Source: Escherichia phage ECO07P2. Taken from it: a DNA stretch of 64,000 bases. The position numbers and the translations under genes are program-made. The notes beneath the pieces were generated by a model, which saw only the letters and a program-made list of their open reading frames with translations, was not told the origin of the DNA and made no database searches. Every line of letters starts with the position of its first letter. The stretch's first letter is position 1. Positions 34-21,495 of the stretch are shown here, piece by piece. The stretch lies in the sequence record OP172785. One strand, 5' to 3'.

Positions 34-63
34 ATAGTACCACAGAGGAACAGTCTTGTAAAC
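34..63 (-). promoter_or_regulatory. T4-type early promoter (minus strand: GTTTAC-N18-TACTAT, then conserved ACAACTATCAACTAC start region)
   Basis: plus-strand gtaaac at 58-63 and atagta at 34-39, spacer 18; same architecture recurs 11 more times in window; drives gene beyond left edge (ATG at 3-5 with GGAGG). Confidence 0.6.
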
Positions 64-65
64 CA

Positions 66-368
66 CTAAAAGAAACTTCTTTCACAATTTTTTCCACTGA
101 ACCATGCGCTTACCGCTTTCTTAGTCTCAGGAGCAGTATTATCCATAAACCATTCAAAGGCAGCCTTTTTATGATTCTGGAGGGCTTCTCGGGCTTTAAT
201 CTGCTCACGGTCTATTAACACTAACATATGAGCCTTTCTTGTCACCATGGGCTTCTTATGATTTTTTGAATACTCCCAGTCATTTGTCCATCGCATTGTC
301 GTTGCGAATTGAAATACAGCTTCTTTAATCTTAGTTTCGTAAATTTCACGAGCCTTTGAGTATAACAT
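66..368 (-). CDS. hypothetical protein (about 101 aa)
   Basis: ORF in track; second Met at 368 is preceded by GGAGG Shine-Dalgarno so start placed there; no recognisable motif. Confidence 0.5.
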   Translation of the reverse strand: MLYSKAREIYETKIKEAVFQFATTMRWTNDWEYSKNHKKPMVTRKAHMLVLIDREQIKAREALQNHKKAAFEWFMDNTAPETKKAVSAWFSGKNCERSFF

Positions 369-469
369 CACTACCTCCATTCACCAGTTTAATTCTAGTC
401 ATCTTTTTAATGGCAGTCCATATAATCTATTTCTGAACTGCCTTTTTGTCATAGAAGTCCTCTTATGAA

Positions 470-1438
470 TTATTTCAGAAGAGTAACCTCAGCAATTTCT
501 TCCCAACCGTTTTTGTCGGTCATAATAAAGTCAGCAAGATAAAGAGCAGTACGCAGTGAAACATTGCGTAAACGATTAACATTGACTTTCATCCATGATA
601 ATGCTTTATAAGTTTCTTCATCAGAAAGACCGCGCTTTTGCATCATGTCGGTTGAAAGAATAACATCTTCAACCCTGACCATAATTTCTTCATTAGTGTG
701 AACACCCAAATCCAAATAAACTGAGCGGGACACTAATGCTTGTAAGTGTGGGGCAAGTTTAGTACCACGGTCTAATTCGCGGTCAATGTCAACGTTTGTG
801 ATAAAAACAATCGTTCCTTTAAATTCAAACTCACGGTCAATGCCTTTTTCTTCTAAGTAAGAAGATGCAGTGCTCCAGCAGACTTTACGGGTCTCTCCGG
901 TGTCCAGAGCAGCTTTTAGAAGATTAAGAATGTCCATATCAGAGAAAACATCCACATCATCAATCAAAAGGACAGAGTTCTCTTCACGATTATTCCAAAG
1001 CTGCTCATAAAGACCAATACCAGAGATTTTACCATTAATGCTTTTATATTCAATGTATCCATTATCATTTGCTTTATTTAAAGCTTTATCTAAAGAATAC
1101 GTTTTACCAATACCTGCTGCGCCAGAGATAATTAATGAACGAATATTTCCATTAATAATACCATTCGTCATCATTCCCATAACATTAAATCTTTTATTAA
1201 TGCGGGTTTTCATATCTTCATATGATTCTTTAACTTCTTCAACTTTTACACCATCATATGAAATATCTGATTTGTAAACCCAAACACCGCGACGTTTACC
1301 GTCAATTTCAACAAAAACTTTACCATCTCCTTGTGCATCTACCGGAGCATTATCTGGGAACCATTCGCCTAAGAGCTCAAAAGTTCCAGAGATTTCTTTA
1401 CCAAAGTAGATACCCTTATTGATAGTTACAGTTTTCAT
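470..1438 (-). CDS. P-loop ATPase, AAA-like (Walker A GAAGIGKT, Walker B LLIDDVD)
   Basis: ORF 322 aa from ATG at 1438 (track start at 1450 is a TTG); Walker A and B motifs read directly in translation; preceded by GGAGAA SD and early promoter. Confidence 0.7.
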   Translation of the reverse strand: MKTVTINKGIYFGKEISGTFELLGEWFPDNAPVDAQGDGKVFVEIDGKRRGVWVYKSDISYDGVKVEEVKESYEDMKTRINKRFNVMGMMTNGIINGNIRSLIISGAAGIGKTYSLDKALNKANDNGYIEYKSINGKISGIGLYEQLWNNREENSVLLIDDVDVFSDMDILNLLKAALDTGETRKVCWSTASSYLEEKGIDREFEFKGTIVFITNVDIDRELDRGTKLAPHLQALVSRSVYLDLGVHTNEEIMVRVEDVILSTDMMQKRGLSDEETYKALSWMKVNVNRLRNVSLRTALYLADFIMTDKNGWEEIAEVTLLK

Positions 1439-1475
1439 TTTATTCTCCAAATCTGTATCAGTAGTTGATAGTTGT

Positions 1476-1505
1476 ATAGTACCATAAAGCTTTATGCTTG
1501 TAAAC
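1476..1505 (-). promoter_or_regulatory. T4-type early promoter
   Basis: gtaaac 1500-1505, atagta 1476-1481, spacer 18, conserved downstream agtagttgatagttg block; upstream of ATPase gene. Confidence 0.65.
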
Positions 1506-1530
1506 AGTTTTGTGAAAAAATTTTTGAAAT

Positions 1531-1558
1531 AAAAAAAGGGGACCTCTAGGGCCCCCTT
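1531..1558 (-). terminator. rho-independent terminator (minus strand)
   Basis: minus-strand RNA GGGGGCC-CUAGA-GGUCCCC followed by U7; lies just after stop of ORF 1568-2053. Confidence 0.65.
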
Positions 1559-1567
1559 TGTGTTGAT

Positions 1568-2053
1568 TTATTCCATTTCTACTATATGCATGTTCTTTTT
1601 GCTATCAAAATATATGTTTTTAACTATTAACTCAGAATTAATTGGCAGTAAAAACTCTCTTTCATAATCTACCATACAAAGATTATCATAAAGCTTGTTA
1701 AGCTTATCATCGTCAGTTTGGCCAGATTCTTCAATTGCGATTAAATTTTCTAAAATGTCAATCATAGCAGTCGAATAGTCGAAAACGTTTGCATTTTTTA
1801 ACACTACTAAAACATTAGTCATATAGCGTTCTGCTGCAAACGTTTCAGCTATATGAGACTCACTGCTAAAGGAAGTTATTCTTTTAAATTTGATTCTCCT
1901 ATTAACTTCAAACTTATAAGATAGCACTTCCTCTATTGTAAGTCCTCTAAAAAGTATGTCTTTAATCTCAAGTTTGTCTTTAATGTAATCATTAACACGC
2001 TTATGATTAAAATCATTAATTTTGTTGCCAAGGCATTGCATTAAAATATGCAT
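1568..2053 (-). CDS. hypothetical protein (161 aa)
   Basis: ORF in track, tight packing with neighbours; no motif recognised. Confidence 0.55.
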   Translation of the reverse strand: MHILMQCLGNKINDFNHKRVNDYIKDKLEIKDILFRGLTIEEVLSYKFEVNRRIKFKRITSFSSESHIAETFAAERYMTNVLVVLKNANVFDYSTAMIDILENLIAIEESGQTDDDKLNKLYDNLCMVDYEREFLLPINSELIVKNIYFDSKKNMHIVEME

Positions 2054-2150
2054 TGTATTCTCCTCAATTTTTAAAGAGCAATTAATTAACTACACATATA
2101 TTATAATATGCTTTGCGATAGAAGTAAACAACTTTGTGACGTCATTTTAA

Positions 2151-2177
2151 ACAAAAAAGGGAGCCCGAAGGCTCCCT
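2151..2177 (-). terminator. rho-independent terminator with UUCG tetraloop (minus strand)
   Basis: minus-strand RNA GGGAGCC-UUCG-GGCUCCC followed by U6, immediately after stop of nucleotidyltransferase ORF. Confidence 0.7.
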
Positions 2178-2178
2178 A

Positions 2179-3189
2179 TCATTTATAATAACTTCGGTGG
2201 TTTTCAAGATAAACCCTCTCAAGGAAGTCATCCCAGAAACCCATGTCTACTTTTTGCTGCATACCGTTCTTAGAAGCTTCAATGGATGCTGCTTCTACTT
2301 GATCGACCACATCTTCCAAAAACTCTTGAACAGTTTTAAATGGATGTTTACCCAACTTCACGTCGAGAATAAATGGAGCATCTTGAAGTGGATAAACCAA
2401 GTCACCAGTTTTGTAAATTTCCAATAGTTGGAGTCCACCACGACAAGCATGACTCAGAGCTTTCCAGTCAATGCCCTCATTCGCTTCAGCCTTACGAGCA
2501 CGTTCGCCGTATTCAGCATCAAGTTTATTCAAAGACTGCTTAAGCTCAATAAGAGAAAGTGTTGTCTGATATTTACGACCCAACACAGTGTAAAACGTTT
2601 GTGGACCTGTTTTCTCATGATTATGGAACACCCATTCACAGAACTCGTTTTCTGGAAGACGATGCTTAATATCTTCAACTTTAGTGCGACGCTGCTTAAT
2701 GGAACCGTCTTCTTGGTAATCAACCCACTGATCAGGGATTTGATTAACTACTTTCAATACATCACGTAATGCGGCCAAACGAGAACCCTTGACACCATAT
2801 TTAGAAGCTTGCTTGCGGACATATCCTAAATAAGATTTCATGTTAGTTGTATAAAAACGAGAACGATTGTCTTGGATAAATTTCCATACATCAGGTAAAT
2901 CAGATTTAACCACTAGTTCAGGTGGAGTGTGGAGCATATCCAATGCTACAGTTTCACCATCTGCAGCTAATTTAAAGAAATACTTAAGACTGTATAGTTC
3001 ATGGTCAATATCATCTTTAGTGTTTTTAGATGATGTGTTGTTCGTGTTTTTACTCATATGCTCTTTAACATTTCCGATAAGAATATCGCGAGCAGGAGGA
3101 ACAAAGATTTCTTTAAAATCTACATCAGATTCTGGAGTAGAAGTTCCATAAAGATGACTACCAAAATAGCTTTTCATTACTGTTTTCAT
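2179..3189 (-). CDS. Pol-beta superfamily minimal nucleotidyltransferase-like protein (GS-x3-GT-x4-SDVD motif)
   Basis: 336 aa ORF; N-terminal FGSHLYGTSTPESDVDF matches the GS...[DE]x[DE] nucleotidyltransferase signature; long helical C-terminal region; family assignment by motif only. Confidence 0.6.
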   Translation of the reverse strand: MKTVMKSYFGSHLYGTSTPESDVDFKEIFVPPARDILIGNVKEHMSKNTNNTSSKNTKDDIDHELYSLKYFFKLAADGETVALDMLHTPPELVVKSDLPDVWKFIQDNRSRFYTTNMKSYLGYVRKQASKYGVKGSRLAALRDVLKVVNQIPDQWVDYQEDGSIKQRRTKVEDIKHRLPENEFCEWVFHNHEKTGPQTFYTVLGRKYQTTLSLIELKQSLNKLDAEYGERARKAEANEGIDWKALSHACRGGLQLLEIYKTGDLVYPLQDAPFILDVKLGKHPFKTVQEFLEDVVDQVEAASIEASKNGMQQKVDMGFWDDFLERVYLENHRSYYK

Positions 3190-3650
3190 TATTCAGCCTT
3201 ATATTCAATAACAGGACATACTTTAGCTTTACGCGCTTTTAAAAATTCGACGATAATAGATTTCTTTGGTTGAATAGGAGGTAAACCTTTATACGCCCTA
3301 TCAATATTTTCTACATGTAAAGCATAATCCTTTTTCCATTTATAATCTTTATATTTTTCATGCAGTTGTGCAGGAATAACAAATGAACCAATAATAAGTA
3401 AAACAAGCAAAATAGCAAGTATAAATGCTGATGGAATAAGAGTCCATAAACTACCAAAAATAAGCCATTTCTGCATAATTTCTGCGCAGATGATAGTTAG
3501 ACCTGCGAGTATAGTACATCCGAAAAAAGAAACGAAAAATGTAGGAATAACAATAGACCAAAAATACGCGCACAGTGTCTTAGGTCGTTTCCATTCATCA
3601 TTAAACATTTTGAATAATTTATAGTGCCAAGAGTTTTCATTAATAATCAT
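3189..3650 (-). CDS. membrane protein (predicted transmembrane helices)
   Basis: 153 aa ORF with two long hydrophobic stretches (FWSIVIPTFFVSFFGCTILAGLTIICA and WTLIPSAFILAILLVLLIIGSFVIP). Confidence 0.6.
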   Translation of the reverse strand: MIINENSWHYKLFKMFNDEWKRPKTLCAYFWSIVIPTFFVSFFGCTILAGLTIICAEIMQKWLIFGSLWTLIPSAFILAILLVLLIIGSFVIPAQLHEKYKDYKWKKDYALHVENIDRAYKGLPPIQPKKSIIVEFLKARKAKVCPVIEYKAE

Positions 3651-3652
3651 AA

Positions 3653-4174
3653 TTATCCTTTCATTGAAGGTGTAACAGTTGTTAAATACTTAATCATAGC
3701 TTCAGCTTCTGATTTTGATAATGAAATTTCTCCATTGTTTTGACGAATAGAAATAAAATCCGGATGACGGTCACCACCAGCTTTTAAAACACACATATAA
3801 GTATCAGTTTCATCTTCAATATTTGAAATAATTGAAGCAGTTCCGCATGAATGCGGTTTTTGATAAATCAATACGGCTTTTCTTCCACCGTTTGACTGTT
3901 CATAAACTTTTAACACATCAAACAAATCACTTCTTTTATCAATAGCTAAGATGTTGTTTTCATCTTCAATGTTAAATCCTTCGGATACTTCATAAAGTGT
4001 CACCCATAAATCACCTATATCGATAGTAGCATTTTCCTTTCCATGACTTTCAAGAGTATGACAAATTTTCTTGATTTCGTCATAACTCATTTTAATAATA
4101 TCATCTCCTTGAATAAGGAAGATGTCATTTTTAAATTCAATACGAATTAAACCACTTTCACTCGAAATAAACAT
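3653..4174 (-). CDS. hypothetical protein, paralog of adjacent ORF 4182-4739
   Basis: 173 aa; shares GFNIE(D/S)E and C-terminal (A/E)xxK(T/Y)YL(D/T)(S/T)V(I/T)P(T/S)M with neighbour. Confidence 0.6.
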   Translation of the reverse strand: MFISSESGLIRIEFKNDIFLIQGDDIIKMSYDEIKKICHTLESHGKENATIDIGDLWVTLYEVSEGFNIEDENNILAIDKRSDLFDVLKVYEQSNGGRKAVLIYQKPHSCGTASIISNIEDETDTYMCVLKAGGDRHPDFISIRQNNGEISLSKSEAEAMIKYLTTVTPSMKG

Positions 4175-4181
4175 ATTTTCC

Positions 4182-4739
4182 TCACTTTGAAATCATAGTT
4201 GGAATGACAGAATCAAGATAAGTCTTTAGCGCAATAGCTTCGTCTTTGGTAAATGTGACAATATGTGATCGAAAATCGTCAATTTGGCGAATAGTTAAGA
4301 CATCTCCCTCTTCATAACATTTTGATACATTTAAAAGAGTTTCATCATTCTGATTGCAAGCGTTAGTAATAATAGCATTGCAATTTTTGAGCCATTTTAA
4401 ACTATGTTTTCTTTCATTAGAATAATAAAAATATTTAATCTTAGCTATAAAATTATCCCAATTATTAATTGATAAGCATATCGACTCGCTTTCAATATTA
4501 AATCCTGGGCATAAAGAATAAAAATGAATTTTATGCTCATCATTAATGCTTACAATTTTATCAGTATAAGGTTTTTCAATTTGGGTTAAATGAATAATTT
4601 CGCTAGGCGTAAAATATAGCATATCGTCTTCTTGCGTCAAACGATACATATTATTTACTTTTTCTATAGCCAATTCACCAAAAAGTGAACTAACTTCTAA
4701 TACTAATCGTTTCATATTGATTCTCTTCGACTCACTCAC
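4182..4739 (-). CDS. hypothetical protein, paralog of adjacent ORF 3653-4174
   Basis: 185 aa; first codon at 4739 is GTG with AGGAG 8 nt upstream, alternative ATG at 4715; C-terminal similarity to neighbour. Confidence 0.5.
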   Translation of the reverse strand: MSESKRINMKRLVLEVSSLFGELAIEKVNNMYRLTQEDDMLYFTPSEIIHLTQIEKPYTDKIVSINDEHKIHFYSLCPGFNIESESICLSINNWDNFIAKIKYFYYSNERKHSLKWLKNCNAIITNACNQNDETLLNVSKCYEEGDVLTIRQIDDFRSHIVTFTKDEAIALKTYLDSVIPTMISK

Positions 4740-4766
4740 AATTACATACTCCTTTGAATAATATCA

Positions 4767-4796
4767 ATAATATTGTTCACCAGATTATAAGTAAAC
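4767..4796 (-). promoter_or_regulatory. T4-type early promoter (proximal of a tandem pair)
   Basis: gtaaac 4791-4796, ataata 4767-4772 (TATTAT on minus), spacer 18. Confidence 0.5.
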
Positions 4797-4874
4797 ATCG
4801 GGTAATTATATTGAATCATCACATACACAACAAACAAAACTTTCATTCTCTTCTCCCTGGCAGTTGACAAGATT

Positions 4875-4904
4875 ACTATACCATAACCTTGCCAACTTGT
4901 AAAC
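4875..4904 (-). promoter_or_regulatory. T4-type early promoter (distal of a tandem pair)
   Basis: gtaaac 4899-4904, actata 4875-4880 (TATAGT on minus), spacer 18. Confidence 0.5.
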
Positions 4905-5069
4905 CATTAAATGACGTTTTCAATAAAATTCTGAAGCTTTGTGTGAGCATCAACCATGATTTTCATTTCTTCCTTTGCGAAAGCTGTACCTCTTTCCCGA
5001 GAAGAATACTCATAGTCAGAAACTGCATTAGCGTATTCTTCAATTAGCTTCATTAAAAACATCTGCTTT

Positions 5070-5264
5070 TCAGTTTTCATTATTCCACCTAATCATTTCA
5101 AGATATTGAACTAACTTAGCTTTGGATTTATCCAAATCTCTTTTAGCTGCTTCTATACCGTCGTATGAATATCCTTCACAATGCTCAACTGCTAATTGAT
5201 ATGAATCTATTTCAACATCACGTACTAATTTAATGATTTTTTCAAACTGTTCGTGTGTCAGCAT
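5070..5264 (-). CDS. small hypothetical protein (64 aa)
   Basis: ORF in track with ATG at 5262-5264; acidic helical-looking sequence. Confidence 0.45.
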   Translation of the reverse strand: MLTHEQFEKIIKLVRDVEIDSYQLAVEHCEGYSYDGIEAAKRDLDKSKAKLVQYLEMIRWNNEN

Positions 5265-5266
5265 AC

Positions 5267-5449
5267 TTAAACTCTCGTATTATGATCGATAATTTCATCA
5301 AGAAACATATCTAAAGCTTCTACAGCATTATCAACTTTAGCTTCAAATTCTTCAATACCTGATAAGGCAAAGTTAACGCGTTCCTCATCTGCTTTGCGAA
5401 TTAAAGCTACCAATTCTTTAATTTTATCTGCTTGTTCGATACTAATCAT
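5267..5449 (-). CDS. small hypothetical protein (about 60 aa)
   Basis: start moved to ATG at 5449 (GGTGG SD) which overlaps stop of upstream gene. Confidence 0.45.
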   Translation of the reverse strand: MISIEQADKIKELVALIRKADEERVNFALSGIEEFEAKVDNAVEALDMFLDEIIDHNTRV

Positions 5450-5637: not shown

Positions 5638-5665
5638 GATGTTCTCCTCTTTATCCGATGGTTGT

Positions 5666-5695: not shown

Positions 5696-5704
5696 CGGTA
5701 AAAT

Positions 5705-5728
5705 GAAAAAAGTCTCCCGAAGGAGACT
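5705..5728 (-). terminator. rho-independent terminator with UUCG tetraloop (minus strand)
   Basis: minus-strand RNA AGUCUCC-UUCG-GGAGACU followed by U6; directly after stop of ORF 5733-6119. Confidence 0.7.
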
Positions 5729-5732
5729 AATG

Positions 5733-9179: not shown

Positions 9180-9641
9180 TCATTGAGTTTTAATTACTGC
9201 TTTAGAAGCCTTTCCTGGTAAACGACGACTGTTAATAATTGCCATCCTGCATTGAAGCGACGGGTCTTTGAACTTCGCATTAGGTTTACAAACTGTAAAT
9301 CCAAGCCAAAGATTTCCATCTGTGATTTCTAAACGCCCAGGACGATATTCAACCCCATCAATAAAATCCTCGTCAATGTCAGGACGCGGAGGCATACTCA
9401 GGAATTCATTAACTTCTAAAACATGGTCTTTTATTTTATGGAATAATTCAAAAACATATGTCTCATCAATCTCCCGTTGAATTGCACGATCAAGAAGATG
9501 CTGAGAATATTTTAGATGAAACGATGAGACCCCTGCTGCTTTTGATGCCTCACGAATCTCATTGTTAATTTGACGAAACTCCGACTCAAAGTGACGACGG
9601 AGCTTATTTCGACGGATAAAAACTTCTGTGTTGATAGTCAT
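9180..9641 (-). CDS. regB: RegB site-specific endoribonuclease
   Basis: 153 aa, same length as T4 RegB, located between vs.1-like gene and early promoter; assignment by length, synteny and recalled sequence. Confidence 0.8.
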   Translation of the reverse strand: MTINTEVFIRRNKLRRHFESEFRQINNEIREASKAAGVSSFHLKYSQHLLDRAIQREIDETYVFELFHKIKDHVLEVNEFLSMPPRPDIDEDFIDGVEYRPGRLEITDGNLWLGFTVCKPNAKFKDPSLQCRMAIINSRRLPGKASKAVIKTQ

Positions 9642-9668
9642 GTTATTCTCCTCTTAACTGATAGAAAA

Positions 9669-11846: not shown

Positions 11847-12320
11847 TTATTTGAATGATTTGACGTACTGAATAGAGCCTTTGCTATTCACGAAAGCGAT
11901 TTTACCATTTTTATTATACATGGTAGCAGTACGCTGATAGCCATAAGTTTGCTTACCAGATTGATAACCAACTAATGCAAAATTATCTTCACCCATTTTA
12001 TTCTGTTTAGCACGAATGCGTTCATGACCATGCGCCATAAGAACCTTAGCATCACCAGTTGCAATGGATCTACGAGTTTTTTCATCTTCAACTGTATTAA
12101 CAAAGTCGTCAAATGAATCAAATTTAGCGTGAGATTTATTATACAGTTTTCCATCTACTGCATAATTGTATCCCTGTACATCCATCTCAACTTCTGTACC
12201 ATCATCCAATACAGCAGTGATTTTTTGACCTTTTTTAAATTTCAAAAGATCAGTAAAAGATTCAGCAATAATTTGAGAATTAATAGCTGCCTCAGTAATA
12301 AATTCTTGATATGTTTTCAT
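11847..12320 (-). CDS. capsid-targeting-sequence (CTS) protein, internal-protein-like
   Basis: 157 aa; N-terminus MKTYQEFITEAA is the T4 CTS shared by IPI, IPII, IPIII and Alt and cut by gp21 after Glu. Confidence 0.7.
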   Translation of the reverse strand: MKTYQEFITEAAINSQIIAESFTDLLKFKKGQKITAVLDDGTEVEMDVQGYNYAVDGKLYNKSHAKFDSFDDFVNTVEDEKTRRSIATGDAKVLMAHGHERIRAKQNKMGEDNFALVGYQSGKQTYGYQRTATMYNKNGKIAFVNSKGSIQYVKSFK

Positions 12321-12360
12321 GTTATCCTTTAAATGTAAATAGTTTTATTCTTTAAGTTTT

Positions 12361-12408
12361 GGACAATTCACACGCATGAATTGTCCGTTTCTATATTTAC
12401 CCATTACC
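12361..12408 (-). repeat. copy 2 of conserved intergenic element, with perfect 10-bp inverted repeat
   Basis: ggacaattca-cacgca-tgaattgtcc hairpin (12361-12386) overlapping the 35-bp core shared with 11728-11762. Confidence 0.6.
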
Positions 12409-12427: not shown

Positions 12428-13006
12428 TTAAGAATTACCACGGGCTGCATTAGCAACGGCGTAAGCGTACTGAACATTAGCGTCTTTAAACGTACCTTTA
12501 GAGGTATCTAGTTCTGCCTTAAAGCCGCCTTTAGTCATAACCTCGGCGAATTCTTTACGGAAAGCCATTGCATCAAGGCTTCTCCATGACGATTTGTGCT
12601 TGGCGAATTCAAGACCAGCGTAGTTGACAGCCTTAGCTAATTTATTATCAATAACCCATTTACCAGCTTTAGGCACAAATACCGGGCCTTTCTGTTTGGA
12701 GAATAGTTTTAAATTCCAGCGACGAAGGTCACCGTCAGCTTTAACAAAAGCTGCGTCCAAGTTACTAGCAACAACATCTTGAATATGGCCAAATTTAAGC
12801 CCATCAACTTCAATATTTAGATCAGTACGCCAGCGAAGTCCTTCCCAAGCGAAAGCTTTAAAGTCAGAAGCCTTTGTAGCTAAATACCGTTCAATAGGAG
12901 CTGTTTTAGGGTCAAAGCCGTTTCCTCGGTAAGTCCACTCATCTTTATTAATGCCTTTGGCCTTTTCCACAGAAGCTTCAGTGATAAATTCTTTATAGGT
13001 TTTCAT
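12428..13006 (-). CDS. CTS protein (IPIII-sized internal protein)
   Basis: 192 aa; N-terminus MKTYKEFITEAS; length close to T4 IPIII (194 aa) but identity not verified. Confidence 0.7.
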   Translation of the reverse strand: MKTYKEFITEASVEKAKGINKDEWTYRGNGFDPKTAPIERYLATKASDFKAFAWEGLRWRTDLNIEVDGLKFGHIQDVVASNLDAAFVKADGDLRRWNLKLFSKQKGPVFVPKAGKWVIDNKLAKAVNYAGLEFAKHKSSWRSLDAMAFRKEFAEVMTKGGFKAELDTSKGTFKDANVQYAYAVANAARGNS

Positions 13007-13021: not shown

Positions 13022-13336
13022 TTATTCTTTAGGGAAGTTTTTAGAATATGCATCATAAAGCTTATTTCCAATACGGCGGAAAACTCTAGCCGCAAAACGA
13101 TTTTCTGGGTTTTTAATCATGATTTGCATCATATAAGTACCCGCGTCAGAAAGAGCTTCTTCATAGTACCCGTTAATTTCTTTAAGAGTCCTACGTTTAC
13201 CACCAGGACCATCAACAGTGATTTTCCATTTACCTGTAGAAGTGCGACTTGGCGGCTCAACTTGTTCAATCCAGATATAACCGCCTTCTACACGTTGGTT
13301 GGCGGATTCTGCAATAAATTCTTTATATGTTTTCAT
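13022..13336 (-). CDS. CTS protein (IPII-sized internal protein)
   Basis: 104 aa; N-terminus MKTYKEFIAESA; basic small protein. Confidence 0.7.
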   Translation of the reverse strand: MKTYKEFIAESANQRVEGGYIWIEQVEPPSRTSTGKWKITVDGPGGKRRTLKEINGYYEEALSDAGTYMMQIMIKNPENRFAARVFRRIGNKLYDAYSKNFPKE

Positions 13337-13366: not shown

Positions 13367-13396
13367 ATTATACCATATTAATACTTAAGCGTAAAC
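13367..13396 (-). promoter_or_regulatory. T4-type early promoter
   Basis: gtaaac 13391-13396, attata 13367-13372 (TATAAT), spacer 18. Confidence 0.6.
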
Positions 13397-13452
13397 CGTT
13401 TAAGCTTCACCGCCAGAAATAATTCCGAAGTTGTTAAATTGATACGAGTCAT
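13378..13452 (-). pseudogene. denV: relic of denV (endonuclease V) reduced to 24 codons
   Basis: minus-strand ATG at 13452 behind GGAGG encodes MTRINLTTSELFLAVKLKRFTLKY then stop; first 11 residues match T4 endonuclease V MTRINLTLVSEL as recalled. Confidence 0.5.
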
Positions 13453-14311: not shown

Positions 14312-14313
14312 AA

Positions 14314-16064: not shown

Positions 16065-16084
16065 TCCTATTTACTCCAAGTAAT

Positions 16085-16100
16085 AGGGGCCGAAGCCCCT
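16085..16100 (-). terminator. UUCG-tetraloop hairpin after gene end (AGGGGC-UUCG-GCCCCU on minus RNA)
   Basis: 5 nt after stop of ORF 16106-16699; identical hairpin recurs after hoc at 56452-56467; no strong U tract so may be a stability or processing element. Confidence 0.45.
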
Positions 16101-16105
16101 TATCA

Positions 16106-16699
16106 TTATTTCAGAGAATTAATGTATTCCTGAACATCGGCAGAGGTAGTTTCAACCCCAGAAATATTACCATTAAAGGTTTCAACTCGAGCAAGGGTAT
16201 CTTCAATATCAACCTTAGTCAGTGCTGCAATTTCAACTACATCATCGGCAGTACTAATTCCAAGGGCATTTGCCGCACGAGTTTCACGGATATATTCCAA
16301 TTTAACTGCAAGTTCTTGGCGAGCATCATCTAACTCAACTACTTTCTTGGCGATTTCAATTCGCATTTCAGCATAACCATCAGCTTTAGTAGTCAACTGT
16401 TCAGCTGTTCGGCGATATAGTAAACCGAGTTTAGCATGCATTGTTACATCTTGACCCTCGGAAAGAAGCTTGCGAATTTCACGCTCTTTTGATTCGGCCT
16501 GCTTATTCTTTTCAATAACAAGTTCACGAATACGTTTTTCTTCATTAATAGATTTAACAGAAGCAGTTTTTAGATCTTTAATTTTATCAAGTAGTTTTGC
16601 TGCTGCAGCAGTATACTGTTCTTCAACAGATAGATTTTTAGCCATAGCAGAACCAAGTTTAGTGCGAATAAACTCAACAATTTTCTTCAGCATGTTCAT
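16106..16699 (-). CDS. coiled-coil protein (197 aa)
   Basis: heptad-rich, charged, Ala/Glu/Lys/Arg-rich sequence; no catalytic motif. Confidence 0.55.
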
Positions 16700-16745
16700 A
16701 GCATTTCCTTTAGTTAATTAAGGGTTTTATAATCCATGGGAGTAT

Positions 16746-16922
16746 TATACTCCGGATAGTTTGTAAACTATTTCAACATCGCCTTTTGCTGCTTTATAAC
16801 CTTCAGCCCAAGATACAACCGAGTTTTTATCCGAAGATTCAAATTCTGGCATTGGGCTTTCGCCAATGTTCACGCAGTATGTTTCTTCATTTTCGTCAAA
16901 CCAAATAATTAAAGTAGTCATT
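16746..16922 (-). CDS. possible small protein (58 aa) not in ORF track
   Basis: ATG at 16920-16922; hand translation MTTLIIWFDENEETYCVNIGESP...; weak SD. Confidence 0.3.
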
Positions 16923-16989
16923 TATTTCTCTGTTTCTGTATTTGTTTTGATAAGTCTATAATAACACCGTCCTTGGTGTTTGTACACAA

Positions 16990-17265
16990 TTATTTCATAT
17001 TATTGAAATATTCTTCAGCGATTTCGTCGTTATCATGGTAAACTTTAGAAGACAGTTTAACATAACTTTCAGCAGTGAACATGTTAATCACAACCTTTAC
17101 AGTATACCACTGACCATCTTCATTACCCATTACTGCATAGGTTTCAAACATCGGATGGTCAGGACCGATAACTTTAATATCATTCACTGTACGACCGAAA
17201 TCTTCTGAAACACATTTCATAAAGAAGTTGAACAGTTCGCCGTAATTATCCATTTCATTCTCCAA
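16990..17265 (-). CDS. hypothetical protein (91 aa)
   Basis: ORF in track, immediately downstream of an early promoter. Confidence 0.5.
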   Translation of the reverse strand: MENEMDNYGELFNFFMKCVSEDFGRTVNDIKVIGPDHPMFETYAVMGNEDGQWYTVKVVINMFTAESYVKLSSKVYHDNDEIAEEYFNNMK

Positions 17266-17296
17266 GTTGTTTTCTGTATCAGTAGTTGATAGTTGT

Positions 17297-17326
17297 ATAG
17301 TACCACGGAAGAACAGAGATGTAAAC
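17297..17326 (-). promoter_or_regulatory. T4-type early promoter
   Basis: gtaaac 17321-17326, atagta 17297-17302, spacer 18; flanking sequence nearly identical to promoters at 34-63 and 1476-1505. Confidence 0.65.
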
Positions 17327-17455
17327 AGTTTTGTGAAAAATTTTAAAAAGTTTTAGGGAATTCTAGGGCAGGGAGGGGCAATTAAAGGATAGGATAATAT
17401 ATTATAAAGGGTAGAAACTAAATGATGTCTAGAGAGGCCTGGAAAGGCCTAGATA

Positions 17456-17486
17456 CCAAAAAGCCCCAACCCTTTGGCTAGGGCTA
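17456..17486 (-). terminator. rho-independent terminator (minus strand)
   Basis: minus RNA AGCCCUAGCC-AAAG-GGUUGGGGCU followed by U5, just after stop of CTS gene 17493-17966. Confidence 0.6.
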
Positions 17487-17492
17487 AGAATG

Positions 17493-17966
17493 TTATTTGA
17501 TCTGTTTAGCAGACCAAATGCGGTCTTTAATAATTTTTTGGATGTCTTCAACATACTCAAGAGAGTGAGCATGTGGGTTATCTTTGAAACTATAAGCACG
17601 AGCCAGTTTTTGGCCTTCAGTTTTGATTACTAAAAGCTCTTTAAGGATAGCTTCATATTTGGAGATAATTCCTTTAACAATATTTTTTTCTTGTACAGCT
17701 TTAGGATCTGCTTTAGGAGCAGGTTTACCTGAAGCCTTTGCAAAAGCAGCTCCAGTAGCAACTAAACTTTTCCAAGCCATACTAACTGCATTCCCTGTAA
17801 ATCCTTCGGCTTTCATATCACGAGCAAATTGGAATCGTGATTCATCGGAAGCATCTTTATAGGAATATTTACCCGCGGCAATGGCAGCTTTTGCAACAGC
17901 TTGAATTTCAGTGCTAGATGCTTCATTTAACACAGCTTCATTTAAAAATTGAGCATATGATTTCAT
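17493..17966 (-). CDS. CTS protein (internal-protein-like, 157 aa)
   Basis: N-terminus MKSYAQFLNEAV resembles the CTS; Ala/Lys-rich body; own late promoter and flanking terminators. Confidence 0.6.
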   Translation of the reverse strand: MKSYAQFLNEAVLNEASSTEIQAVAKAAIAAGKYSYKDASDESRFQFARDMKAEGFTGNAVSMAWKSLVATGAAFAKASGKPAPKADPKAVQEKNIVKGIISKYEAILKELLVIKTEGQKLARAYSFKDNPHAHSLEYVEDIQKIIKDRIWSAKQIK

Positions 17967-18002
17967 CTTATTTCCTGTTTTAATTCGTGGTTTTAATATA
18001 CT

Positions 18003-18010
18003 TATTTATA
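18003..18010 (-). promoter_or_regulatory. late promoter (TATAAATA on minus strand)
   Basis: plus-strand tatttata 18003-18010, about 37 nt upstream of ATG at 17966. Confidence 0.55.
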
Positions 18011-18013
18011 CTA

Positions 18014-18040
18014 AAAAGCCCCAACCTTTCGGTCGGGGCT
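18014..18040 (-). terminator. rho-independent terminator with GAAA loop (minus strand)
   Basis: minus RNA AGCCCCGACC-GAAA-GGUUGGGGCU followed by U5; ends transcription coming from tRNA and small-RNA region. Confidence 0.65.
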
Positions 18041-18045
18041 AAGCC

Positions 18046-18351
18046 TTGCGGCAACCTTGTCGGGGTTCCACCTGCTAAGGCAAGTGTTTGTACGAAACGC
18101 CGGGACTTGAACCCGGTTATTAAGTAGTTGACGCTACTCAATATTTTTAAAAGGCCATATCTCGACCATATCCGAACGTTCCGTCAAAAACGCTACTCGG
18201 CTTACGGCAAAGATATTTCCTCGAATCGATAATTCGGTGCGCCGTTTCTGCTGTGATGTAAGGGGATATTAACAAATCGTAAAGATTTATTAAGACCAGT
18301 CCTTACTCAGGGAACATCAGTCCGACGACTTACCGGTAGCGACCCGGTTTC
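18046..18351 (-). ncRNA. ORF-free structured region; candidate stable small RNAs (position of T4 RNA species 1 and 2)
   Basis: 306 bp without ORF between terminator and tRNA cluster; minus strand carries a T-arm-like CCGGGTTCAAGTCCCGG; in T4 two stable RNAs lie distal to tRNA-Arg. Confidence 0.35.
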
Positions 18352-18702
18352 TTAATATTCTTTTAAAGCATCAATCTGTTCACGGCGTTTACGCCATAAA
18401 TCAATTGCCTCATACGCGGATTCAGCATTTCGAATTGGACGGCATTTATATAAAGACTTATGATTTTGATATTGCGTAGATAACGGAATTTTATCTAAAA
18501 GGTCTTTACGTTCAAAGTATTCGTAACCATCTAAACCAAATGAACGATTTTTGAGAAATTGCCAATGACCATATTCGTTTTCGACATAAACATAATCTGC
18601 ATGCTGATAAAGTAAATTAATTACACGTTCAGAAATAACAGTGTCATTGTGATTAAAATAGAATGTTAAATCATGAACTACTAAATAAACATTACCTTTC
18701 AT
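18352..18702 (-). CDS. hypothetical protein (116 aa) embedded in tRNA region
   Basis: ORF in track ending 16 nt before tRNA-Arg. Confidence 0.5.
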   Translation of the reverse strand: MKGNVYLVVHDLTFYFNHNDTVISERVINLLYQHADYVYVENEYGHWQFLKNRSFGLDGYEYFERKDLLDKIPLSTQYQNHKSLYKCRPIRNAESAYEAIDLWRKRREQIDALKEY

Positions 18703-18718
18703 ATTTTCCTCACTTAAT

Positions 18719-18794
18719 TGGTCGAGGCAGTAGGGATCGAACCTACGACCTAGGACTTAGAAGGTCCTTGCTCTTCCTTCTGAGCTATGCCCCG
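18719..18794 (-). tRNA. tRNA-Arg (anticodon UCU), CCA encoded
   Basis: hand-folded cloverleaf on minus strand; anticodon loop CUUCUAA; GGTTCGATCC T-arm. Confidence 0.8.
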
Positions 18795-18798
18795 TAAT

Positions 18799-18874
18799 TG
18801 GGGTGACCGATGGGAGTCGAACCCATGACTACGAGAATCACAATCTCGAGTTCTACCAACTGAACTACGGCCAC
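18799..18874 (-). tRNA. tRNA-His (anticodon GUG) with extra 5-prime G
   Basis: anticodon arm CGAGA-UUGUGAU-UCUCG; G-1 pairs with C73; T-arm GGGTTCGACTCCC. Confidence 0.7.
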
Positions 18875-18988
18875 ATTAATATCTACTCCAACAATCAAGA
18901 TGTCTTCACACGAAATTAAGAGAAGAGTGATCAGTTCAACCCCGATAATCGCGTCAAGTAGATATTAATGTGACAGTTGTCACAAATT

Positions 18989-19063
18989 TGGCGGACGTGA
19001 TAGGATTCGAACCTATAACCAATCGCTTAACAGGCGATCGCTCTGCCATTGAGCTACACATCC
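18989..19063 (-). tRNA. tRNA-Asn (anticodon GUU)
   Basis: anticodon arm ATCGC-CUGUUAA-GCGAT; T-arm ATAGG-TTCGAAT-CCTAT. Confidence 0.7.
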
Positions 19064-19067
19064 AAAT

Positions 19068-19154
19068 TGGTGGGGAGTGATGGAGTCGAACCACCCGAGT
19101 CGCAATGACAATGGATTTACAGTCCACACCGCTACCTCTACGGGATAACTCCCC
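19068..19154 (-). tRNA. tRNA-Tyr (anticodon GUA), long variable arm
   Basis: acceptor GGGGAGT/ACTCCCC; anticodon loop CUGUAAA; class II length 87 nt. Confidence 0.65.
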
Positions 19155-19167
19155 TTAATTCTTAATT

Positions 19168-19242
19168 TGGTGGCCCTGGGTGGAATTGAACCACCATCTG
19201 GCGATTATGAGTCGCTTGCTTGAACCTTCCAGCTACAGGGCC
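19168..19242 (-). tRNA. tRNA with CAU anticodon (T4 tRNA-Ile-like; Met by anticodon alone)
   Basis: anticodon loop CUCAUAA; adjacent to tRNA-Thr as the T4 Thr-Ile pair. Confidence 0.65.
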
Positions 19243-19243
19243 T

Positions 19244-19319
19244 TGGTGCTGATTGACGGAATCGAACCGCCGACCTTCTCATTACAAGTGAGTTGCTCTA
19301 CCTACTGAGCTAAATCAGC
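19244..19319 (-). tRNA. tRNA-Thr (anticodon UGU)
   Basis: acceptor GCTGATT/AATCAGC; anticodon loop CUUGUAA; T-arm GGCGG-TTCGATT-CCGTC. Confidence 0.75.
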
Positions 19320-19324
19320 AAAAC

Positions 19325-19414
19325 TGGCGGAGGCGATAGGATTTGAACCTATGAGTCGCCGGAGCGACTGCCGGTTTTCAAGACCGGTGCATTAAACCAC
19401 TCTGCCACGCCTCC
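19325..19414 (-). tRNA. tRNA-Ser (anticodon UGA), long variable arm
   Basis: anticodon arm CCGGT-CUUGAAA-ACCGG; 90 nt class II. Confidence 0.75.
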
Positions 19415-19416
19415 AG

Positions 19417-19490
19417 TCTCCATACAAGGATTTGAACCTTGGACCTCCTGATCCCAAATCAGGCGCTCTACCAAACTGAGCTACACGGAG
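19417..19490 (-). tRNA. tRNA-Pro (anticodon UGG), CCA not encoded
   Basis: anticodon arm CCTGA-UUUGGGA-TCAGG; only 2 nt from tRNA-Ser 5-prime end (dimeric precursor as in T4). Confidence 0.75.
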
Positions 19491-19500
19491 TAAATTAAAT

Positions 19501-19574
<74 letters not shown>

Positions 19575-19579
19575 AAATT

Positions 19580-19666
19580 TGGTGCGAGAAGTGGGACTCG
19601 AACCCACAAGGAAATCATTCCGCAGCATTTTAAGTGCTGTGCCTTTACCAATTTGACCATTCTCGC
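19580..19666 (-). tRNA. tRNA-Leu (anticodon UAA), long variable arm
   Basis: anticodon arm CAGCA-CUUAAAA-TGCTG; 87 nt. Confidence 0.75.
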
Positions 19667-19667
19667 G

Positions 19668-19740
19668 CTGGGAATAAAGGACTCGAACCTTTGCATCCTG
19701 GAATCAAAATCCAGTGCCTTACCAACTTGGCTAATTCCCA
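19668..19740 (-). tRNA. tRNA-Gln (anticodon UUG), CCA not encoded
   Basis: acceptor TGGGAAT/ATTCCCA; anticodon arm CTGGA-UUUUGAU-TCCAG; 1 nt from tRNA-Leu (Gln-Leu dimeric precursor). Confidence 0.75.
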
Positions 19741-19837
19741 ATTATTAACAAAGGCTCTCAAGCAAGAACCCTTGATGATAGAGGGTATTAATCAGTGCGA
19801 TATGAGTTAATAATAACAAATAATTCTTAAAGCATAT

Positions 19838-20125
19838 TTACCATTTATGATAATACATATTTACGATGCATTCAAGACCCAAAGGATTCTTGAAAATATC
19901 ATATTCAAGAGGACCTTTTTCTGTTTCAATAAAGAAATCAAAATTTACTGTATTAAATTTACGGTCTTCCTTCACTAATTTAACTTGAGAAGATGAACGG
20001 TCAATGTAAACCTTTTCAACTTCAAAACATGTTAAAATGCCATAATCATCAATCAAGGCTTTAGCCGCATCTTGATCATATTTATATCCATTTTCAATGG
20101 ACGATACTTTCGCATAAAGAATCAT
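19838..20125 (-). CDS. hypothetical protein (95 aa)
   Basis: ORF in track. Confidence 0.5.
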   Translation of the reverse strand: MILYAKVSSIENGYKYDQDAAKALIDDYGILTCFEVEKVYIDRSSSQVKLVKEDRKFNTVNFDFFIETEKGPLEYDIFKNPLGLECIVNMYYHKW

Positions 20126-20127
20126 TA

Positions 20128-20532
20128 TTAACCTTTATCAACAATAGTATGTGTATGGGCATTTACAATTTGCCACCAGTCGAAACTATCGCCAAATCGT
20201 TTTGATTTATTGTCTTCAATAATTTGGCGTAATTCATCTTCTGTTTCAGCATACGCAATCAAATCATCATATCCACCGCAAGGATAGTAATTATCGCCTG
20301 CGAACAAAAGAAAATTTACTTTAGATGGGTCTACATAATAATGCTCTTTAGGATATTTAGTTCCTTTCCAATCAGTTACTTCAACATAACGGTAAGAAAA
20401 TCCATTTTTACTTTCAACCCAACTCCACGCTTCAAAAGGAGTATTAAAAACTCTATCAGGTATTAAATTACCTTCAAAATGAGAAGGATTTGCATAATCC
20501 CCAGCATAAACATAATATTCGTTAATATTCAT
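20128..20532 (-). CDS. hypothetical protein (134 aa), Trp/Tyr-rich
   Basis: ORF in track. Confidence 0.5.
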   Translation of the reverse strand: MNINEYYVYAGDYANPSHFEGNLIPDRVFNTPFEAWSWVESKNGFSYRYVEVTDWKGTKYPKEHYYVDPSKVNFLLFAGDNYYPCGGYDDLIAYAETEDELRQIIEDNKSKRFGDSFDWWQIVNAHTHTIVDKG

Positions 20533-20718
20533 TTATTCACCTTTAGAAATTTTATCCATAACGATAGCAATTAAACCAATTAAAAATGCTACTACAAGTG
20601 AAAACACATTTTCTGCTGTAGTTAATAATCCGCATATAAATCCAACAAACATTGAAAAACTAAAAGCAGAAGCAGAAATTGCAATAGCAACATTTCGAAT
20701 TAATTCACAACGTTTCAT
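20533..20718 (-). CDS. small membrane protein (61 aa)
   Basis: two hydrophobic helices in translation. Confidence 0.45.
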   Translation of the reverse strand: MKRCELIRNVAIAISASAFSFSMFVGFICGLLTTAENVFSLVVAFLIGLIAIVMDKISKGE

Positions 20719-20746
20719 TTTATTCTCCTCAGTAGTTGATAGGGTA

Positions 20747-20776
20747 ATAATATCACTACCCCATCTAAAAGTAAAC
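20747..20776 (-). promoter_or_regulatory. T4-type early promoter
   Basis: gtaaac 20771-20776, ataata 20747-20752 (TATTAT), spacer 18. Confidence 0.6.
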
Positions 20777-20786
20777 GGTTTATAAA

Positions 20787-21095
20787 CTATTTTATTCCGC
20801 GTGATGCAATTGTGTTCTGCCGTTTAACACCAGTTTGTTTAAAGTCATGATTGTCGATTTGATCGGTACGAGCAACACCGAATGATGATTTAATCTTAGC
20901 TTTAGATCCTTTAGTTATAGAAATAAACATCTCGGAAGCCCCTTTCTTAAAGTCCGAGGCGATTACTTCAACGCCGTTCTTAGCAAGTGACCTCAGAATT
21001 GCCTCCGCGTACTCATCATCAAGACTCGCCTGAGTATTAATAACGAATGTCTTTGGTGCAGCCGCTTCATTGATAAATTCTTGATATGTTTTCAT
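20787..21095 (-). CDS. CTS protein (internal-protein-like, about 102 aa)
   Basis: MKTYQEFINEAAAPK from ATG at 21095; an upstream in-frame ATG at 21107 would add 4 residues. Confidence 0.65.
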   Translation of the reverse strand: MKTYQEFINEAAAPKTFVINTQASLDDEYAEAILRSLAKNGVEVIASDFKKGASEMFISITKGSKAKIKSSFGVARTDQIDNHDFKQTGVKRQNTIASRGIK

Positions 21096-21129
21096 TTTGA
21101 TTTCCATTTAGTTTTGTTTTGATAGTGTA

Positions 21130-21159
21130 ATAGTATCACAACTAAACCACCGTGTAAAC
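21130..21159 (-). promoter_or_regulatory. T4-type early promoter
   Basis: gtaaac 21154-21159, atagta 21130-21135, spacer 18. Confidence 0.6.
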
Positions 21160-21162
21160 AAT

Positions 21163-21435
21163 TTATTTTAAATAAATTGCATATTTTTTATAACCAGCCG
21201 TCTCGTGACGCAGACCTTTTTCATTAGCAAAGCGTTCAATATTATTAATTTGATTCTGATCAAGTTCTGAAATATCAAATACAAAAAAGTTTCGTTTATT
21301 TCCTAACGTTACATGATTCGTCAAATCAATGTTATAAAGATGATTTATATTATCAATCATAGTCTTAACAGATTTGCTAATTTTTACTTCTTCATTAAGA
21401 GCAGATTCAACGATAAACTCTTTGAAAGTTTTCAT
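21163..21435 (-). CDS. CTS protein at the ipI position (internal protein I-like)
   Basis: 90 aa; N-terminus MKTFKEFIVESA; located just upstream of 57B as T4 ipI. Confidence 0.7.
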   Translation of the reverse strand: MKTFKEFIVESALNEEVKISKSVKTMIDNINHLYNIDLTNHVTLGNKRNFFVFDISELDQNQINNIERFANEKGLRHETAGYKKYAIYLK

Positions 21436-21465
21436 TTTATTTTCCTAATTAATTTTGATGAGGTA

Positions 21466-21495
21466 ATAGTATCACTACCTCATCAACGTGTAAAC
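21466..21495 (-). promoter_or_regulatory. T4-type early promoter
   Basis: gtaaac 21490-21495, atagta 21466-21471, spacer 18. Confidence 0.6.

Follow-up and report, generated by a model that had tools for sequence, protein, structure and literature searches.

T4-type early promoters in the nrdC-ipI region of Escherichia phage ECO07P2, with predicted hairpins between promoter spacers and leaders

We analysed a stretch of 64,000 nucleotides from Escherichia phage ECO07P2 (sequence record OP172785; hereafter the window), in which a preliminary description, made from the sequence alone, had reported a family of repeated early promoters followed by a conserved leader. The first 22 kb of the window matched more than 1,200 phage records, nearly all of them from Tequatrovirus and its relatives, the best match being Escherichia phage ECO07P3 with 97.6% identity. 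Positions 1-32000 are collinear with T4 53881-85000 at 86-96% identity, with indels between the matching segments. Judged by this similarity, the window is part of a Tequatrovirus (T4-like) genome. The promoter region holds minus-strand T4 early genes, namely nrdC.8 to nrdC.11, the mobD.x genes, rI, tk, vs, regB, the ip genes, e, the tRNA cluster and ipI. All promoter copies lie on the coding strand of this nrdC-tk-vs-regB-ip-e-tRNA-ipI early region, so that each copy described below, with its hairpin and its gene, is read from the minus strand.

The pattern GTTTAC-N18-TA(C/T)(T/A)AT has exactly 12 matches in the window, all on the minus strand between 34 and 21495, with none past 21.5 kb. The chance expectation of this strict pattern, estimated from shuffled sequences, was 0.08, and 0 of 100 shuffles reached 12; the number and the coordinates of the copies in the preliminary description were thus recovered. 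A position weight matrix scan added two degenerate members, whose G at -36, or G(-36), lies at 4904 and 16987, and this brought the family to 14 copies, which we call by the position of that G. With each copy left out of the matrix in turn, 12 copies scored 22-48 against a null maximum of about 12.5, and 10 of the strict 12 were supported. Eight copies are orthologous to T4 sites with the same motif (53943, 55384, 57990, 58780, 62797, 70696, 73572 and 73939). P2129, P13396/P13509, P16987 and P21159 are without a collinear T4 counterpart.

The transcription starts (+1) given for the individual copies are predictions. P63 (3..63) stands upstream of the nrdC.8 orthologue, with the -10 hexamer TACTAT at 34-39, +1 at 27 and ATG at 5 (T4 53943). 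At P1505 (1436..1559), an intrinsic-terminator hairpin at 1535-1559 is followed by the promoter of the nrdC.10 orthologue, with +1 at 1469, the leader ATCAACTACTGATACAGATTTGGAGAATAAA and ATG at 1438 (T4 55384). P2129 (2051..2177) is atypical: a terminator hairpin at 2158-2177 precedes a promoter with TATAAT that lacks both the extended -10 element TGn and the ATCA of other copies, and whose +1 would lie near 2093. Its target is an open reading frame (ORF) of 161 amino acids (aa) at 1568-2053, and its upstream half is a duplicate of the sequence that precedes P1505. P4796 (4737..4796) is doubtful, having only the hexamers, without TGn or ATCA. It lies inside a 34-codon mobD.2-like ORF, with the GTG start of the mobD.1 orthologue downstream at 4739, and the pattern is not matched at the T4 equivalent. 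P4904 (4844..4904) is degenerate but strong, with +1 a G at 4868 and ATG at 4846 (mobD.2, 34 aa). P5695 (5635..5728) again combines a terminator hairpin (5711-5728) with a promoter, here for the mobD.5 orthologue (+1 5659, ATG 5637; T4 58780). P9698 (9639..9698) is the regB early promoter, with TATAAT, +1 at 9662 and ATG at 9641. P13396 (13334..13396) precedes a 104-aa internal-protein-type gene (MKTYKEFIAE...; +1 13360, ATG 13336, leader ATCAAAATAAAC...), and P13509 (13450..13509; +1 13473, leader ATCAACTACTTGGAGG, ATG 13452) now has downstream of it only what looks like a 24-codon denV remnant (MTRINLT...). P16987 (16918..16987), degenerate with GTGTAC and TATTAT, has +1 at 16951, the leader ATCAAAACAAAT... 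and ATG at 16921 (58-aa ORF); its leave-one-out score is 24.5, and it sits at a homology breakpoint with both T4 and ECO07P3. P17326 (17251..17326) serves the e.8 orthologue and carries the exact 15-mer discussed below, with +1 at 17290, the 37-nt leader ATCAACTACTGATACAGAAAACAACTTGGAG and ATG at 17253 (T4 70696). The remaining copies are P20776 (20716..20776) for the trna.4 orthologue (+1 20740, ATG 20718; T4 73572), P21159 (21093..21159) for a 102-aa internal-protein-type gene (MKTYQEFINE...; +1 21123, ATG 21095) and P21495 (21433..21495) for the gene at the ipI position (MKTFKEFIVE...; +1 21459, ATG 21435; T4 73939).

The architecture of these copies is that of the T4 early promoters. GTTTAC occupies -36..-31 in T4 (Nolan 2006), and the early-promoter consensus of T4 and PST is TTTACW-N17-TAYWAT (Comeau 2014). 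Since the published consensus is the GTTTAC pattern shifted by one base, the 18-bp spacer of the preliminary description, said to be one longer than usual for sigma-70, is an artefact of register: with the hexamer TTTAC(A/T) at -35..-30 the spacer has the canonical 17 bp. A generic sigma-70 scan likewise scored the window sites as a 17 bp spacer plus TG. The 17-bp spacer is found in all 14 copies, the TG of TGn (-15..-13) in 12 of them (all except P2129 and P4796), GTTTAC in 13 (GTGTAC in P16987) and a -10 TAYWAT also in 13 (TATAGT at P4904). The -10 region agrees with TGTG(A/G)TA(C/T)(A/T)AT, the motif reported from differential RNA sequencing (dRNA-seq) of T4. An A/T-rich UP-like region (-40 to -60) is clear in P1505, P2129, P17326 and P21495 (AAAATTTTTTCACAAAAC) and A-rich in most others, with a low information content per position (0.1-0.7 bit); in three cases it partly coincides with the T-tract of the upstream gene's terminator. 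The upstream context AAAACTGTTTAC, said to recur in several copies, was present in only 2, and a looser TCACAAARYTGTTTAC in 4. Both reported tandem pairs exist. The members at 13367/13480 are both strong; the '4875' member of the other pair, which is P4904 with its TATAGT, breaks the very pattern by which it had been listed, yet it has a leave-one-out score of 33.6.

The sequence family, its register and its orthology with T4 are direct observations, and from them we consider it very probable that the repeats are T4-type early promoters (Pe), that is, very strong sigma-70 promoters used by unmodified E. coli RNA polymerase right after DNA injection, a class whose transcription needs no phage protein synthesis. 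This class was reportedly described by Liebig and Rüger in 1989 (J Mol Biol 208:517), and the 1994 work of Wilkens and Rüger is said to be a source cited for T4 early promoters. The 'early' label in the preliminary description was therefore right, given a T4-like genome, eight T4-orthologous sites and, among them, the promoter of regB, which has been called 'a typical early promoter' (Uzan & Miller 2010). T4 early promoters have been summarised as an 'uber UP/-35/TGn/-10' architecture (Hinton 2010; Nolan 2006). On the minus strand, a copy would accordingly read as an A/T-rich UP-like region (TTTTTCACAAAAC in the best copies), (G)TTTAC(A/T), a 17-bp spacer ending in TGn, TA(C/T)(T/A)AT, a 6-nt discriminator (ACAACT or TACCCT) and a start at the A of ATCA. 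The mRNA would carry a short leader without structure that ends in a GGAG-type Shine-Dalgarno (SD) sequence, in several copies with a RegB/S1 cleavage site as well. The promoter family itself is a classical and already known T4 class, and its use here is the annotation of 14 transcription units and their start sites.

The start site fixes how much of the conserved sequence downstream is RNA. In the T4 early promoter Pe133295 of GenBank, G(-36) is at 133331, and the name corresponds to G minus 36, which is the 7th base after the -10 hexamer and falls inside the 6-8 nt range set by the preliminary description. Carried over from Pe133295, the +1 in the window is probably the A of ATCA. ATCA occupies +1..+4 (7-10 nt past the -10) in 10 of the 14 copies, and ATCAACTAC is present in 5. 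Most copies had been described as followed by the same block, ACAACTATCAACTAC. We found this 15-mer in 3 copies only (19, 1461 and 17282), even with two mismatches allowed. Its first six bases, ACAACT, are the discriminator at -6..-1 (TACCCT in others); these 40% of the block are untranscribed, and only ATCAACTAC is RNA. The transcribed leaders are 21-40 nt long and G-poor, those of the ATCA class fold at 0 to -0.6 kcal/mol (z about +0.5), and an Rfam scan of 1-22500 returned 11 tRNAs only and nothing in the leaders. The claimed conserved leader is not supported in the form described. The conserved 'leader' is partly promoter (discriminator and start-site context) and partly a shuffled module.

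An alternative is that the RNA portion of the block (AUCAACUAC...) acts after transcription, either as a nuclease or regulator site, as the preliminary description suggested, or, in the long-leader subfamily, as a stabilising hairpin at the 5' end (AUCA-ACUAC-UGAU). The recurrence of ATCA in 10 of 14 copies and of ATCAACTAC in 5 would fit such a signal, a 4-bp 5'-terminal stem is possible in the long leader, and the repeated long leader of Salmonella phage Melville, ATACCAAAYAAATGGTA, which is a different sequence, also opens with a terminal stem. Against this, the long-leader stem is worth only -0.6 kcal/mol (z about +0.5), a 3-nt deletion at T4 55384 destroys the loop, 6 of the 15 block bases lie upstream of +1, and no Rfam family matches. 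As a rule the polymerase prefers to start on a purine (+1) that follows a pyrimidine (-1), which also counts against a signal in the RNA. A further point is that RegB/S1 needs nothing 5' of GGAG. We therefore regard a post-transcriptional role of the block as very unlikely, and rejected a structural element in the 5' untranslated region: the transcribed leaders are essentially without structure, and the 4-bp terminal stem is too weak and is broken in the T4 deletion variant.

Two further candidate roles for the start-site context were also rejected. An adenine at -1 is cited as raising NAD-capping in a T4 paper on nicotinamide adenine dinucleotide (NAD) caps, and the copies never have A at -1: ten carry T there and three C, so that 13 of 14 have a pyrimidine, and P2129 has G. 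As for a link between DksA and the discriminator, no discriminator motif tracks the DksA effect (Patterson-West 2018). In Melville (25001-75000; minus-strand offsets 15269, 26591, 27192 and 38709), four early promoters have a common long leader, ATACC(A/G)(A/C)A(T/C)AAATGGTAAAA(A/C)C..ACTTGGAGAATAAAATG, which starts with a 5-bp terminal stem (UACCx/xGGUA). This repeated leader parallels the T4-type ATCAACTACTGAT long leader, so that repeated promoter-leader modules exist in another genus too.

A shared nuclease site had also been proposed for the leader. One exists, as the known RegB/S1 site, but it lies at the 3' SD end and outside the ACAACTATCAACTAC block. GGAG is present in 11 of the 14 leaders, and the RegB/S1 target is a single-stranded GGAGRAYARAA with no requirement 5' of GGAG (Durand 2006). 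The consensus is exact at the SD of P1505 (1438-1448) and P20776 (20718-20728), and it is matched with one mismatch and GGAG kept at P2129 (2053), P4904 (4846), P17326 (17253) and P9698, the promoter of regB itself (9641). Over the whole window the pattern is not enriched (16 occurrences versus 10.8 expected).

The promoter spacers are each complementary to the leader or SD of their own copy. We computed RNA duplex energies between -30..-7 and -6..start codon for each cassette, and compared a cassette's own pair with cross pairs between cassettes. In the window, own pairs averaged -12.5 kcal/mol and cross pairs -8.1, and 0 of 5,000 permutations reached the observed mean. The same held for 35 promoters of the whole T4 genome (own -11.7 versus cross -7.9; 0 of 10,000) and for 13 promoters of Melville, which belongs to the genus Gelderlandvirus (own versus cross, p = 0.0037). 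When each cassette was folded from -30 to AUG and compared with 300 dinucleotide shuffles, 6 of the 14 window cassettes showed a significant fold (z -3.2 to -6.7), which 0 of 300 shuffles equalled.

These six fall into two groups. In P63, P9698 and P13509 the SD is paired over all four of its bases with spacer positions upstream of +1 (z -5.3 to -6.7). At P63 (hairpin 9-53), the spacer CTGTTCCTCTGT pairs with leader and SD (ACGGAGGAACAG) at a folding energy (dG) of -23.2 (z -6.7, 0/300). At P9698 (9646-9692) the spacer pairs with AAGAGGAGAA, the SD (dG -21.4, z -5.4), and the hairpin of P13509 (13456-13503) also covers the SD (dG -17.6, z -5.3). In P4904, P20776 and P21495 the helix instead surrounds the -10, and its end lies at +3 to +7. 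The P4904 hairpin (4862-4897) has 15 bp (dG -19.0, z -5.0); its T4 version at 57990 is perfect, and in the window two A-to-G changes in the 5' arm lead to G.U pairs. The P20776 hairpin lies at 20738-20765 (dG -16.1, z -3.2), and that of P21495 at 21455-21486, with arms GATGAGGTA / TACCTCATC (dG -18.1, z -6.0).

Another reading is that these inverted repeats do not mask ribosome-binding sites and instead work on DNA, as a cruciform or single-strand hairpin in recombination or as an aid to promoter melting, or else attenuate upstream transcripts or stabilise their 3' ends. This fits the second group, where three of the six strong hairpins (4904, 20776 and 21495) enclose the -10 and stop short of the SD, and stem-loops that overlap the -10 have been read as terminators or attenuators, one of them blocking lacZ (Arbiol 2010). 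However, no U-tract follows the hairpins. Moreover, helix mismatches are strand-asymmetric, with 13 G.T versus 2 A.C, counts that are not independent because window and T4 cases overlap; such an asymmetry is expected of a sense-strand RNA helix and not of duplex DNA. Anti-SD tetramers are also enriched in T4 spacers (9 of 32 versus a background of 5.5%, p = 4e-5), which argues against this alternative. Overall, we think it unlikely that the repeats act on DNA or as attenuators.

The regB promoter allowed the hairpin to be followed across phage genera, in 11 lineages with RegB proteins that share 44-100% identity with that of the window. In 8 of the 11 the hairpin has an energy of -16 to -21 kcal/mol (z -3.6 to -7.4). 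Pairs close to the SD do not vary, and the extensions differ yet remain complementary: TTGACTG/CAGTTAA, TAGTTG/CAACTA, TGTAAGT/ACTTACA, TTTATG/CATAAA and TGTAG/CTACA. When the arms were aligned without gaps, both partners differed in 8 of 15 pairs, a count that leans towards structure because the alignment was anchored on the helix by hand, MAFFT on the full regions having lost the helix register. The covariation score of this hand-anchored alignment was 0.338, compared with 0.14 after shuffling (0 of 500) and 0.02-0.12 for slid partners.

The complementarity and the covariation, both observed, suggest a mechanism in which promoter choice decides what a ribosome can see. In about 40% of the copies, the spacer would form the 5' arm of a hairpin and the discriminator, leader or SD the 3' arm, with the start site inside. 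Because +1 lies within the hairpin and the 5' arm is left out of them, transcripts started locally would be open to ribosomes and to RegB. Read-through transcripts from upstream would fold and hide both the ribosome-binding site and the RegB site; RegB cleavage is known to be inhibited by secondary structure. A scan found no terminator-like site ahead of P63, P9698 and P13509, so read-through into these three is plausible from their sequence context. We infer from the pairing pattern that the hairpin would mask the ribosome site on such transcripts. The wider proposal is that the 17-bp Pe spacer commonly serves as an anti-SD or anti-leader arm, making an early gene translatable and RegB-cleavable only on transcripts from its own promoter; this we put forward tentatively and hold to be doubtful.

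Among the spacer-leader hairpins of T4 that lie outside the region homologous to the window, the strongest are at three sites. The dexA promoter, in the much studied P8.1 region, reaches -25.1 kcal/mol, ndd.4 reaches -23.7, and the duplicated promoter upstream of alt.-3 and rnlA has hairpins of -23 to -24 kcal/mol. The dexA, alt.-3/rnlA and ndd.4 hairpins all include the SD (T4 segments L003 8158-8218; L004 38033-38093; L005 9276-9336 and 39747-39807). We also considered a rule that each copy has either an upstream terminator or a masking hairpin. Upstream terminator-type hairpins occur at 1505, 2129 and 5695, promoter-embedded hairpins at 63, 4904, 9698, 13509, 20776 and 21495, and neither in 5 copies. 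The rule held in the window (p = 0.02) and failed in T4 (p = 0.24) and in Melville, so that it is not established, and this counts against the masking model.

The long identities among some copies can be described in terms of cassettes. The extended module ACAACTATCAACTACTGATAC(A/G)GA / TACTATACAACTATCAACTACTGATAC(A/G)GA recurs in T4 at non-orthologous promoters, namely imm.1 (27080), motA (163673), the ndd region (167086), e.8 (70696) and nrdC.10 (55384), the last with 3 nt deleted; the exact 21-mer occurs in IMG/VR in T4-like contigs only, with 1-4 copies each. Those copies in the window that have an upstream or embedded hairpin show the composite of early promoter, stable stem-loop, and SD and ATG of the next gene that characterises the promoter-early stem-loop (PeSL) cassettes, copies of which flank indels and recombine with one another into mini-circles (Arbiol 2010; Comeau 2014). 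The long identities probably represent a dispersed promoter-leader module, shuffled by recombination as in PeSL cassettes.

It is a serious possibility, a little short of even, that the similarity is kept mainly by such recombination, with mobile PeSL-type cassettes being duplicated, exchanged and gene-converted and the leader hitch-hiking; this would complement the assignment as T4-type early promoters. Spacers are common to non-orthologous promoters: P1505 has the spacer of T4 146875 (frd.3), and that of P63 resembles the spacers of T4 27080 and 166807. Compared with T4, the inserted 161-aa ORF is bracketed at 1505 and 2129 by copies of the series 'terminator hairpin, T-tract, CACAAA, GTTTAC', a denV 5' remnant lies behind P13509, there are breakpoints at 16990 and 20756/21414, and PeSLs have been described for T4/PST. 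On the other hand, 13 of the 18 T4-versus-window breakpoints are more than 100 bp from promoters, the flanks of P1505 and P17326 are identical and their spacers unrelated, which argues for position-specific constraint, and the compensatory changes at regB need selection. For ECO07P3 versus the window, a cassette is found no more than 100 bp from 3 of 9 breakpoints (p about 0.06). The arrangement at 1505/2129 is a textbook example of a cassette at an indel junction.

Some neighbouring genes touch on these cassettes. The 161-aa ORF (1568-2053, minus strand), between the hairpins 1535-1559 and 2158-2177, is not in T4 at that position. About 100 aa of it align with T4 ModB at 30% identity (tblastn E = 4e-9), and in ECO07P3 its annotation reads 'modA_2 NAD--protein ADP-ribosyltransferase'; a Pfam search of it returned no family. 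From these matches it may be an extra ADP-ribosyltransferase paralogue in a promoter-bracketed cassette. The 24-codon ORF at 13378-13452 (minus strand), MTRINLTTSELFLAVKLKRFTLKY, matches the T4 DenV N-terminus (MTRINLTLVSEL...) and overlaps the next promoter, P13396, while promoter, leader and SD of P13509 ahead of it are perfect. It looks like a truncated denV cassette, and an intact denV was not found among the neighbouring ORFs checked. Five minus-strand genes start with the internal-protein capsid-targeting motif MKT[YF][KQ]EFI (11847-12320, 12428-13006, 13022-13336, 20787-21095 and 21163-21435). Only 12428-13006 matches a T4 protein (IpIII, 91%), and the product of 11847-12320 matches DUF7412 over its full length (E = 6e-96). 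An early promoter of its own, with an ATCAAAA(C/T)AA leader variant, precedes each of three of these genes. Upstream of the gene at 11847-12320, a 10-bp hairpin GGACAATTCA/TGAATTGTCC lies at 12360-12387 with no recognisable early promoter around it, and may be a degraded cassette; the T4 ipII promoter (G-36 at 65799) has a promoter-embedded hairpin with related arms, CTAGAATTGTGA/TCACAATTCTAG. Further on, 18722-19740 (minus strand) holds 11 tRNA genes by Rfam versus 8 in T4, and collinearity with T4 is lost at the place of T4 segB (window 18352-19223).

Several points weigh against the interpretation as a whole. On the promoter side, P2129 and P4796 match little beyond the two hexamers; the former (2100-2129) has a leave-one-out score of -5.4, and the latter (4767-4796) was not recovered above a score of 7 once left out of the matrix. 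Among the T4 orthologues, the sources consulted document only regB by name; the documented T4 early promoters Pe133295 and that of dmd, which fit the pattern, lie outside the window's homologous region and so back the pattern and the +1 register, not orthology. The start sites in ECO07P2 are taken from T4 nomenclature and geometry. On the hairpin side, 8 of the 14 cassettes are without a significant fold, half of the strong hairpins leave out the SD, and the hairpins of window and T4 are non-independent samples. The breakpoints, with 5 of 18 between T4 and the window falling within 100 bp of a promoter cassette, show a modest association only, with p of about 0.04.

If the tentative proposal were true, the promoter-split mask of the late genes e, soc, 49 and I-TevI would extend to the early class. 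It would also account in part for conservation in the early-promoter consensus that otherwise lacks an explanation, and for conserved positions in a spacer supposed to be sequence-neutral. The regB gene would gain a conserved second control layer, providing a model for confining RegB synthesis to the first minutes of infection. If functional, the hairpins would mean that, for many of the early genes, the promoter used determines whether the mRNA can be translated. A mask at early promoters was not found stated in the literature searched; older T4 literature outside that search may hold it, and we claim no novelty.

Compared with known systems, the window promoters resemble the T4 early promoters in GTTTAC at -36..-31, the 17-bp spacer, TGn, TAYWAT, the A-rich -42 region and the site ahead of early genes, and differ in nothing essential, ECO07P2 having copies gained or lost relative to T4. 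The RegB/S1 site must be single-stranded, and their leaders are predicted to be unstructured. With the PeSL cassettes they have in common the composite of stem-loop, early promoter, SD and ATG and the TTTACW-N17-TAYWAT of T4/PST. However, the published T4/PST figure places the stem-loops just upstream of the promoter, whereas many hairpins of the window and T4 combine a 5' arm in the spacer with a 3' arm in the leader or SD. In RB49 and phi1 the PeSL stem-loops lie between -35 and -10 or overlap the -10, and they were read as terminators or attenuators, one being shown to block lacZ expression (Arbiol 2010). The PeSL papers give the stem-loop this terminator or attenuator role and are silent on masking of ribosome-binding sites. 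Promoter-split hairpins that mask the ribosome-binding site are known for T4 e, soc, 49, I-TevI/II/III and segB and for Aeh1 mobE; 'they are all late genes', according to a review. In these known cases long transcripts are masked, and those from the proximal promoter are open. As in the e, soc, 49 and I-TevI type, the hairpins of P63, P9698 and P13509 have a 5' arm that precedes the proximal start and a 3' arm that contains the SD. The known cases embed a late (TATAAATA) or middle promoter, whereas the window hairpins embed an early sigma-70 promoter whose spacer is the 5' arm. By analogy, the window hairpins would work like the e, soc, 49 and I-TevI masks, outside the members described so far.

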